Below, piece by piece: positions 6,793-7,345 of a stretch of DNA of 64,000 nt. Each line of letters starts with the position of its first letter. Position 1 is the first letter of the stretch. The DNA is taken from positions 87,625 through 151,624 of IMG/VR virus record IMGVR_UViG_3300030365_000081, one strand, 5' to 3'. The translations under genes were made by a program, and so were the position numbers. Under the pieces are notes generated by a model. The model was not told where the DNA came from. It searched no databases and saw only the letters and a program-made list of their open reading frames with translations. This DNA is from a virus.

Positions 6793-6860
6793 ATAGCCTT
6801 CGCTGCAGGGCCAGTGTTTTGCGAGTAGGAGAACATGCACTGTGCAGCGAAGGTTTTATA
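6793..6860 (+). terminator. Rho-independent terminator after structural gene
   Basis: Long hairpin agccttcgctgcag ... ctgtgcagcgaaggtt followed by ttatatt. Confidence 0.55.
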
Positions 6861-6865
6861 TTGTA

Positions 6866-6894
6866 TTGACAAACAACGATGTTGAATATATAAT
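6866..6894 (+). promoter_or_regulatory. sigma70-type promoter (TTGACA-17-TATAAT), inward-facing, inside left inverted repeat
   Basis: ttgaca aacaacgatgttgaata tataat; perfect -35/-10 hexamers with 17-nt spacer. Confidence 0.55.
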
Positions 6895-6914
6895 AATAGT
6901 AGAACTAAGGCACC
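6889..6914. repeat. left arm of 26-bp inverted repeat (tataataatagtagaactaaggcacc)
   Basis: Reverse complement of 7245..7270 (ggtgccttagttctgctattattata) with 1 mismatch. Confidence 0.6.
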
Positions 6915-6971
6915 GACATAGACGGTCGCGCCTCAGTTTATAGTTTATGTATGACAGTTAAACCATCATAG

Positions 6972-7012
6972 CAAAAACCGTTCTGTGGTCTGGACAGGGC
7001 GGTTTTACTTTT
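6972..7012. terminator. bidirectional Rho-independent terminator
   Basis: aaaaaccg ttctgtggtctggacagg cggtttt + acttttt on the plus strand. The same hairpin is flanked by a T-run when read on the minus strand, immediately 3' of the small minus-strand ORF. Confidence 0.5.
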
Positions 7013-7118
7013 TATTACCACGAAAAAACGTGATAACTGCTACGACAGTTTGTACCCCGGTGAACACAACGCCAATAATGACGATGGTATCAACAAAGGA
7101 TAGACCCGGCATAAGCAT
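7005..7118 (-). CDS. small hydrophobic peptide (37 aa), type I toxin-like (Fst/Ldr-like architecture)
   Basis: MLMPGLSFVDTIVIIGVVFTGVQTVVAVITFFRGNKK: one TM helix plus basic tail. AGGAGG 5 nt upstream of ATG (minus-strand ccaggaggtgATGcttATG). Internal start within track ORF 7005..7229. Confidence 0.4.
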   Translation of the reverse strand: MLMPGLSFVDTIVIIGVVFTGVQTVVAVITFFRGNKK

Positions 7119-7244
7119 CACCTCCTGGCAAAATGGATTTGCCGGAAGGCAAAGTAGGGGCGCTCCACAATGCCTTGCGGCAGATGGGAGGCTTGACCGC
7201 CTATTACGTCTATGAGGAAGATATGGCAAAAAGGAATAAACGTT

Positions 7245-7270
7245 GGTGCCTTAGTTCTGCTATTATTATA
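7245..7270. repeat. right arm of 26-bp inverted repeat
   Basis: ggtgccttagttctgctattattata is the reverse complement of 6889..6914. Contains a TGTATAAT extended -10 facing inward (minus strand) with TTGACA 15 nt upstream (7286..7291 rc). Confidence 0.55.
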
Positions 7271-7305
7271 CAGTCAATCAAAATTTGTCAAATTAAATAC
7301 TGAAT

Positions 7306-7345
7306 CGAAACCGCTTATCTGTACGCAGGTAGGCGGTTTTTTTAT
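7306..7345 (+). terminator. Rho-independent terminator
   Basis: ccgcttatctgtacgcaggtaggcgg (11-bp stem incl. G-U) followed by ttttttt. Confidence 0.55.

Follow-up and report, generated by a model that had tools for sequence, protein, structure and literature searches.

Organization of the cassette

The stretch of viral DNA analyzed here (64,000 nt, positions 87,625 to 151,624 of the IMG/VR record IMGVR_UViG_3300030365_000081; hereafter the window, to whose numbering positions refer) contains, between two tail genes, a cassette of two converging genes: a small open reading frame (ORF) for a hydrophobic peptide on the minus strand and a predicted small RNA (sRNA) gene on the plus strand. Each starts at one arm of an inverted repeat, and both end at the same terminator. 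An earlier note, made from the sequence without database searches, had proposed that this is a selfish module, either type I toxin–antitoxin-like (TA-like) or similar to a miniature inverted-repeat transposable element (MITE). The repeat, the promoters, the small ORF with its Shine–Dalgarno (SD) sequence, and the shared terminator are confirmed as real features, none of which is expected by chance.

The 26-nt core of the repeat has exactly two matches in the window, at 6889–6914 on the plus strand and 7245–7270 on the minus strand, as the note had it, each with an inward-facing TATAAT; the two cores differ at one position only (T/C), and none of 100 shuffled controls reaches two matches. With mismatches the repeat grows to 36 nt, its arms (6882–6917 and 7242–7277) being 89% complementary. 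The left arm takes in the –10 box together with the ~17 nucleotides transcribed first; the right arm is the more variable of the two. No shared operator was found elsewhere in the window, the 14-nt core being present in the two arms only.

Both arms coincide with promoters, the –35 boxes of which lie outside the repeat. The sRNA promoter P_L (6866–6894, plus strand) is TTGACA-17-TATAAT and matches the consensus at 12/12 positions, in agreement with the perfect promoter claimed before; the same arrangement is seen in 61/65 related loci. The promoter of the peptide mRNA, P_R (7262–7291, minus strand), matches at 11/12 positions and has TTGACA at 7291–7286 and TATAAT at 7270–7265 with a 15-nt spacer, which is 16 nt long in 62/65 relatives (60 with TTGACA and 2 with TTAACA). 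P_L and P_R are the top two promoter matches within 5000–9000, and by our rough estimate the chance expectation of a 12/12 match in 8 kb (both strands) is ~1e-3.

The intrinsic terminator common to both RNAs is a hairpin at 6974–7006, which also covers the stop and last codons of the ORF. Its predicted energy is –17.5 kcal/mol on the plus strand and –12.5 kcal/mol on the minus strand; since it is preceded by an A5 tract and followed by a U-rich tract, termination is possible both ways. Among 16 variants it shows pair-preserving changes only. The flanking terminators reported earlier are both present: T1, a long hairpin at 6788–6862, 3′ of the gene for a 361-aa tail protein (–34.9 kcal/mol), lies between an A-tract on its left and a U-tract on its right and thus is bidirectional as well; T3 (7307–7345, plus strand, –21.1 kcal/mol) precedes the next tail gene (ATG at 7368).

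The peptide gene and its leader

The minus-strand ORF (7005–7112) encodes 35 amino acids followed by a stop, MPGLSFVDTIVIIGVVFTGVQTVVAVITFFRGNKK, or 37 if begun at the ATG at 7118. The peptide consists of one hydrophobic helix and a C-terminal tail with a charge of +3 (RGNKK); its grand average of hydropathy is 1.16, and the best 19-aa window has a mean hydropathy of 2.4. Two ATGs follow the SD sequence AGGAGG (7122–7127, minus strand), the first after 2 nt and the second after 8 nt. As the second ATG is kept in every relative and is used by gene callers elsewhere, the product most likely has 35 residues (MPGLSF...RGNKK). Hence, the ORF and the shape given in the note, one transmembrane (TM) segment with a basic tail, hold and the length of 37 aa most likely does not.

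The 35-aa frame is intact in 54/56 loci. Its variable sites comprise 12 synonymous and 16 non-synonymous changes over 26.3 and 78.7 sites, respectively, giving a ratio of non-synonymous to synonymous polymorphism (pN/pS) of 0.45 (p = 0.03); without the lineage of locus L057, the counts are 12:12 and pN/pS falls to 0.33 (p = 0.007). In L057, four changes are non-synonymous and one is synonymous; the SD sequence is lost there, and such an excess is as expected under relaxed selection. The substitution pattern thus indicates purifying selection on the peptide ORF, which strengthens the type I TA reading.

The predicted peptide mRNA runs from 7258 to ~6968 (about 290 nt, the ends being placed by the promoter and the terminator). 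Its 146-nt 5′ untranslated region (7113–7258, minus strand) is highly structured, with a fold of –90.7 kcal/mol and z = –3.94. The minimum-energy fold of the leader contains an anti-SD hairpin at 7120–7151 (minus strand), formed by CCUUCCGGCAAA and UUUGCCAGGAGG, with 12 bp and –16.0 kcal/mol, which buries the SD sequence. Over 30 distinct leaders, one pair of this hairpin appears as C-G (7), U·G (21), or U-A (2), i.e., with a double-sided change, and two further pairs vary to wobble only. The hairpin is broken in only two loci, and in both of them the SD sequence is mutated to AGGAUG.

Searches for relatives of the peptide yielded no match in Pfam, NCBIfam (E <= 1–10), or PHROG. An exhaustive phmmer search against 1.84 billion representatives gave three matches, all at least 82% identical, and a word-index homologue search gave 11, all at least 90% identical. 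A tblastn search of 50,697 phage records and 72,556 plasmids gave no match, although its low-complexity filter may mask a hydrophobic peptide. By these searches, the peptide is an orphan confined to one phage lineage, with no wider family. The note had named lack of conservation of the peptide as a refuting outcome; conservation is observed within the lineage, and homologues outside it were not found.

The small RNA and RNA–RNA pairing

The sRNA, a candidate antitoxin, is predicted at 6901–7014 (plus strand), its ends again placed by promoter and terminator; at ~114 nt it is close to the about 110-nt transcript ending in the bidirectional terminator that had been proposed. The fold has an energy of –33.8 kcal/mol (z = –3.15) and comprises a stem-loop SL1 (6902–6939), a variable linker (6940–6973), and the terminator. 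The repeat-derived sequence forms the 5′ half of SL1, which explains why the left arm is better conserved than the right. All 12 consensus pairs of SL1 are kept in the consensus fold of the 16 variants; four changes lead to wobble pairs (one A-U to G-U, two G-C to G-U, one C-G to U-G), and one cell is broken (C-A). The linker is the most variable part of the cassette (43% of columns); two or three sharply different block alleles of ~20 nt occur here amid otherwise ~97% identical sequence. These alleles and those of the anti-SD loop and leader are found in every combination, with no co-variation; the linker alleles indicate fine-scale recombination or, possibly, diversifying selection. A scan of 6500–7700 against Rfam gave sub-threshold hits only, the best of which, SQ2397 with 24 bits where the gathering score is 100, was treated as noise.

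Certain complementarity between the sRNA and the peptide mRNA is limited to the shared terminator, about 6968–7014 (~45 nt), and includes the stop codon and the last ~2–3 codons of the ORF. The end of the ORF, AAU-AAA-AAG-UAA (7005–7016), is the exact complement of the U-tract of the sRNA terminator; hence, constraint is mutual between the lysine tail of the peptide and the terminator of the sRNA. A 10-nt match between the linker and the ORF (6950–6959 with 7041–7050) lies in a non-conserved allele patch and is probably due to chance, and other targets of the sRNA or of the leader within the window amount to short chance-level matches.

The sRNA might also act mainly in trans, its 5′ stem-loop contacting the ribosome-binding site (RBS) in the manner of SprA1AS, with the terminator overlap being incidental. 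The best duplex outside the overlap, between 6907–6935 of the sRNA and 7126–7100 of the mRNA, indeed covers the SD sequence, the start codon, and codons 2–4, and functional pairing outside the 3′ overlap is known for Fst/RNAII and SprA1/SprA1AS (PMC8594479, PMC8167048). The duplex, however, has an energy of –23.9 kcal/mol, no better than that of shuffled sRNAs (–22.3 ± 2.8 kcal/mol); one of its G-C pairs is lost in the commonest allele, which has GAU at codon 3; and the sRNA does not covary with the translation-initiation region. This variant of the same module is rather improbable, though a sub-alternative to be reckoned with.

Distribution and carrier element

The scan of IMG/VR for the repeat gave 48 loci; that for the T1 hairpin added 8 loci from IMG/VR and 33 from metagenomes. 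The ~100 related contigs, many of them 145–147 kb long, represent one human gut phage lineage with flanks about 95% identical. The site of the cassette is the same across the lineage, and each of the 37 IMG/VR loci of full length shows the gene order and orientation of the window (colinearity). One member of the lineage occurs within a metagenome-assembled genome labelled "uncultured Lachnospiraceae bacterium".

Homologues of the upstream 361-aa tail protein are numerous, down to 65% identity. In six loci in which this protein is 83–67% identical, the gap to the next gene is 66–97 nt and holds a single terminator and no cassette, while the cassette is present in L057/L058, a relative with 88% identity. 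T1 is part of the lineage-specific intergenic insert and likewise absent from the cassette-less relatives. As the cassette is missing at identities of 83% and below, the 615-nt intergenic block with T1, the cassette, and T3 is a lineage-specific, moron-like insertion or replacement, in line with the proposal of an insert among tail-fibre genes.

Beyond this lineage, the 26-nt repeat has no match in 185,579 GTDB species genomes, where the one lineage member (L061) is a cassette-deleted variant; blastn and megablast gave no match among INPHARED phages, and we found no published description of the element. The search for the repeat in other phages, suggested in the note as a check of mobility, thus speaks against mobility, with one lineage and one site.

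The genes of the window include those for tail fibres, a holin, an M23 peptidase, NrdD, ThyX, a dUTPase, and a split PolIII-alpha. A Rep3 initiator with WH1 and WH2 domains (16441–17994) adjoins the tail, holin, and endolysin genes and is followed by ParA (18162–19016) and a ParB-N protein (19018–20208). Judging from this combination of Rep3, ParA, and ParB with phage genes, the carrier is probably a ~147-kb extrachromosomal phage-plasmid of gut Clostridia.

Natural lesions

Natural variants of the cassette include three deletions. D1 (6875–7213) removes the –10 box of the sRNA promoter, the sRNA, the ORF, and most of the leader, and occurs in L047, L064, L065, L066, L069, L071, L076, L087, and L103 (L065 and L076 being the same 94,949-nt contig). 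The right-arm allele of D1, with additional substitutions and with TTAACA as the –35 box, is also present in the intact loci L085 and L101, and is thus an allele rather than the outcome of decay after the deletion. D2 (~6884–7280) removes the whole repeat-bounded segment in L061, L067, L070, L073, L084, and L093 (L070 and L093 being the same 92,114-nt contig). D3 removes the whole cassette, including the left –35 box, in L092.

Other lesions are local. In L020 (IMGVR_UViG_3300045988_173359), an IS200/IS605 element of 1695 nt with ORFs for a 143-aa TnpA-like and a 368-aa TnpB-like protein is inserted 3′ of TTAC within the leader of the peptide mRNA, between positions 7207 and 7208, where it splits P_R from the RBS. 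In L074, the ORF is interrupted by a 1.6-kb element encoding a 420-aa RRXRR-HNH protein, whose RRXRR-type N-terminus and HNH-like motif were read by eye from the translation. L012 combines a C-terminal frameshift with an SD mutation, affecting the putative toxin; L057 and L058 have lost ~100 nt of the leader with the SD sequence and the anti-SD hairpin; and L081 carries a 17-nt deletion at the 5′ end of the mRNA. Damage to the sRNA gene beside an intact peptide gene was not found in any locus of the lineage.

The window itself holds four paralogous RRXRR and HNH proteins of 420–515 aa within 13 kb (49139–50548, 55145–56692, 57993–59255, and 61136–62512, all on the minus strand), which we take to resemble the IscB proteins of IS200/IS605-related elements. 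The RRXRR-HNH elements appear to be mobile in this lineage.

Origin and role of the inverted repeat

Convergent transcription of an inverted DNA repeat yields the same sequence at the 5′ ends of both RNAs, AGAACUAAGGCACC, rather than complementary ones. A weaker segment of the repeat, 7189–7205 against 6918–6934 (14/17 matches, counted by eye), appears as a long-range contact when a hypothetical read-through mRNA is folded, and makes the 5′ domain of the sRNA and the leader of the mRNA inverted paralogues. Our conclusion is that a promoter and its leader were duplicated in inverted orientation, which provides both genes with nearly the same promoter and first 17 nt; co-regulation of the two genes would be a plausible benefit. 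Mutations of a single arm are never matched in the other arm, be it the left (L022/L007, L029) or the right one (L021/L023/L048/L097, L085/L101, L057, L082/L096), so there is no sign of selection for pairing between the arms.

That the twin promoter-leader serves a function in the module, instead of being left over from the duplication, is conceivable but, in our view, improbable. In one version, the toxin mRNA would read through the bidirectional terminator to T1, and its repeat-derived 5′ end would pair with the complement of the other arm; a hok-like fold-back of the 5′ and 3′ ends, as in the fold of the hypothetical read-through mRNA, would keep the mRNA inert, and the sRNA, fully complementary to the 3′ extension, would control this lock. 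In the other version, the identical first 17 nt would subject both RNAs to a single common factor and thereby fix their ratio. The uncompensated single-arm mutations argue against any strict arm–arm pairing in such a role.

Repeats of this geometry, 36 nt long, inverted, and 324 nt apart beside tail-fibre genes, recall fimS-type invertons and the Mu G or P1 C segments. In such a scheme the repeats would be recombinase sites, the 324-nt core would flip, and the promoters would swap genes; the position of the –35 boxes outside the arms is consistent with it. The colinearity of all full-length IMG/VR loci, though assemblies hide minority orientations, speaks against inversion, and so do the counts of junction patterns in metagenome contigs (0 matches for the flipped junction, 33 for the control). 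A scan of 58 ORFs of the window, which covers 64 kb of the ~147 kb, detected no recombinase domain, and the arms carry fixed differences besides the uncompensated mutations described above. An inverton is, hence, very improbable.

The MITE-like alternative, or any other mobile element bounded by terminal inverted repeats, would account for the repeats as such and for deletion D2, which removes almost exactly the segment between them. The element is, however, present as one copy per genome at one site in ~100 contigs and has no copy in GTDB genomes; the insert reaches beyond the repeats (T1 on the left, 7278–7306 on the right), so that the repeats are internal to it, and their arms coincide with the promoters; and the deletions have three different boundaries, as ordinary or palindrome-stimulated events would produce. 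Given the single copy, the single site, and the internal position of the repeats, we reject this reading of the note as very improbable.

A proposed type I toxin–antitoxin-like moron

The anatomy of the locus, selection on the ORF, covariation in the RNA structures, and the pattern of lesions together point, with slightly better than even confidence, to a type I TA-like, terminator-insulated moron on a probable phage-plasmid. Among the features that define the type I class, the locus has a hydrophobic TM peptide below 60 aa (35 aa) and an SD sequence sequestered in the toxin mRNA by the 12-bp hairpin. As to an antisense RNA, the consensus promoter and the terminator predict a transcript of 114 nt whose 3′ ~45 nt would overlap the 3′ end of the mRNA. 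As in the moron class, it forms an autonomous promoter/terminator unit between phage genes that is absent from relatives.

The two transcripts, the toxicity of the peptide, the consequences of RNA pairing, and the role in addiction are inferred. In the proposed mechanism, P_R would produce the ~290-nt mRNA leftward, and the anti-SD hairpin would keep its translation low; the product would be a single-pass membrane peptide of 35 aa with a basic tail. P_L would produce the ~114-nt sRNA rightward. Due to the shared terminator, the 3′ ~45 nt of the two RNAs would be perfectly complementary, with pairing probably beginning between the mutually complementary terminator loops (the loop–loop contact being favoured), and the duplex would lead to RNase III-type cleavage or 3′ destabilization of the toxin mRNA, as in 3′-overlapping Gram-positive systems. 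Upon loss of the phage-plasmid, the sRNA would be the first to decay, leaving the peptide free to kill or arrest the cell, thus stabilizing the element.

For a TA module, losses of the toxin alone or of both genes are expected, and losses of the antitoxin alone are not. The observed lesions affect the toxin or both genes and never the sRNA alone, which is suggestive, although the independent events are few.

Several points weigh against this interpretation. The peptide has no homologue outside the lineage and no family in Pfam, NCBIfam, or PHROG, and its identity as a toxin would follow from its shape alone. The certain complementarity of only ~45 nt lies inside two stable hairpins, and neither whole-length RNAduplex nor scans of 30-nt windows found a pairing outside the overlap that beats shuffled controls. 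Both promoters are near-consensus, so that an excess of antitoxin is not evident from the sequence. The asymmetry of lesions comes from few events (by a rough estimate, 0/6 on a one-third target, p about 0.09), and the outright loss of the cassette in about 15 site-bearing contigs (duplicates included) implies that it is dispensable.

Some of the same observations suit a moron for a small non-toxic membrane protein, e.g., one involved in superinfection exclusion or lysis timing, with the sRNA as an unrelated regulatory RNA or insulator. An independent promoter/terminator unit between tail genes that is absent from relatives, purifying selection on the ORF, deletion of the dispensable cassette in several contigs, and the lack of homology to toxin families would all be compatible with such a gene. 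It would leave aside, however, that the converging sRNA uses the terminator of the ORF and is conserved as well as the ORF; that a covarying, SD-sequestering hairpin is typical of cases where translation must be held off; that the common descent of the promoters suggests that both genes form one unit; and that no losses of the sRNA only are seen. We consider the non-toxic moron unlikely, though not negligible.

Type I modules are hard to find by homology, and we know of almost none from uncultured gut Clostridia or their phage-plasmids. If confirmed, the TA-like moron would represent a new toxin family and an RNA-controlled addiction module on a phage-plasmid, and could provide a compact stabilization cassette for genetic tools in gut Firmicutes. 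The candidate is located in a widespread ~147-kb element; the cluster of the neighbouring tail protein has 1,455 member sequences.

Other features of the carrier element

A PemK/MazF-like type II toxin domain (54645–55064, minus strand; E = 4.6e-10) may belong to a second addiction or defence module on the element. The gene for PolIII-alpha (DnaE-like) comes in two pieces on the minus strand, one with the PHP/N-terminal part (33103–35031) and one with the finger/HhH part (36329–37543), and a 318-aa ORF (35328–36284) lies between them.

Past ~8312, in the distal tail-fibre genes, the identity among L001–L048 drops from ~95% to 70–90%, or similarity is lost; this mosaic region, beginning ~1 kb downstream of the cassette, is presumably the host-range region. 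The cassette-less relative L049 (GCA_963630595.1, with a 78% identical tail protein) encodes, downstream of the tail-fibre genes, a 345-aa reverse transcriptase (RVT_1, 7761–8798 in the numbering of L049), which may be part of a diversity-generating retroelement.

Comparison with known systems

Type I TM peptides of Clostridia and Bacilli have 28–60 aa in B. subtilis and 34–59 aa in C. difficile and a charged C-terminus; their genes overlap convergently at the 3′ ends, are located in prophages, and have a sequestered SD sequence (PMC6563280, PMC8594479, PMC8167048). The locus follows this architecture, as the note had proposed, in its single-TM peptide, converging sRNA, and shared terminator; the suggested likeness of the peptide to Fst, Ldr, and TxpA toxins does not extend to membership, as there is no match to these families in Pfam, NCBIfam, or PHROG, and the same holds for Hok.

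The par locus (Fst/RNA II) of Enterococcus faecalis pAD1 is similar in that convergent mRNA and sRNA share one bidirectional terminator, and its setting is plasmid maintenance (PMC8167048). Unlike Fst, the peptide here has no Fst match in Pfam or NCBIfam. In par, the direct repeats DRa and DRb provide complementarity at the 5′ ends (PMC8167048), whereas the repeats here are inverted and the 5′ ends are identical, so that pairing of the DRa/DRb kind does not apply; no significant 5′ complementarity is seen, and as direct repeats the two 5′ regions share no more than 10 nt of AU-rich sequence. The convergent, 3′-overlapping arrangement that the note had likened to fst/RNAII and txpA/ratA is thus retained for the ~45-nt terminator overlap and dropped for 5′ pairing.

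The SprA1/SprA1AS system (PepA1) of Staphylococcus aureus shares a small TM peptide and a short 3′ overlap largely outside the ORF (PMC8594479, PMC8167048); in both Fst/RNA II and SprA1/SprA1AS, the antisense gene is on the 3′ side and the overlap falls mostly beyond the ORF (PMC8594479). A trans contact of the sRNA 5′ domain with the RBS would be a further likeness, but the corresponding duplex here is not better than chance, and there is no sequence homology.

The prophage modules of C. difficile (e.g., CD0904.1, CD0956.3, and CD2907.2 with their antisense RNAs) have peptides of 34–35 aa, hydrophobic towards the N-terminus and rich in Lys at the C-terminus, and, together with txpA/RatA and bsrG/SR4 of B. 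subtilis, show convergent overlapping genes, prophage location, and a proposed role in stabilization of the element (PMC6563280). The peptide of the cassette shows no homology to these modules detectable by tblastn. It also has no family match to TxpA or BsrG. In the TxpA/RatA and BsrG/SR4 families the antisense RNA overlaps a substantial 3′ portion of the ORF; the overlap here covers the stop and the last ~2–3 codons only. RatA and SR4 overlap their mRNAs by 75–120 nt, compared with ~45 nt here. To our knowledge, a twin inverted promoter-leader has not been described for the prophage modules of C. difficile or B. subtilis.

Phage morons resemble the cassette in having their own promoters, flanking terminators, a position between tail genes, and no counterpart in close relatives; unlike the usual single protein gene, there are two converging genes here, one of them non-coding. 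Overall, the geometry of the locus is closest to the Gram-positive 3′-antisense families, among them Fst/RNA II and SprA1/SprA1AS, with the twin inverted promoter-leader as an unusual twist of putative function. The cassette would, in effect, be a new family of the type I TA kind rather than a new kind of system.

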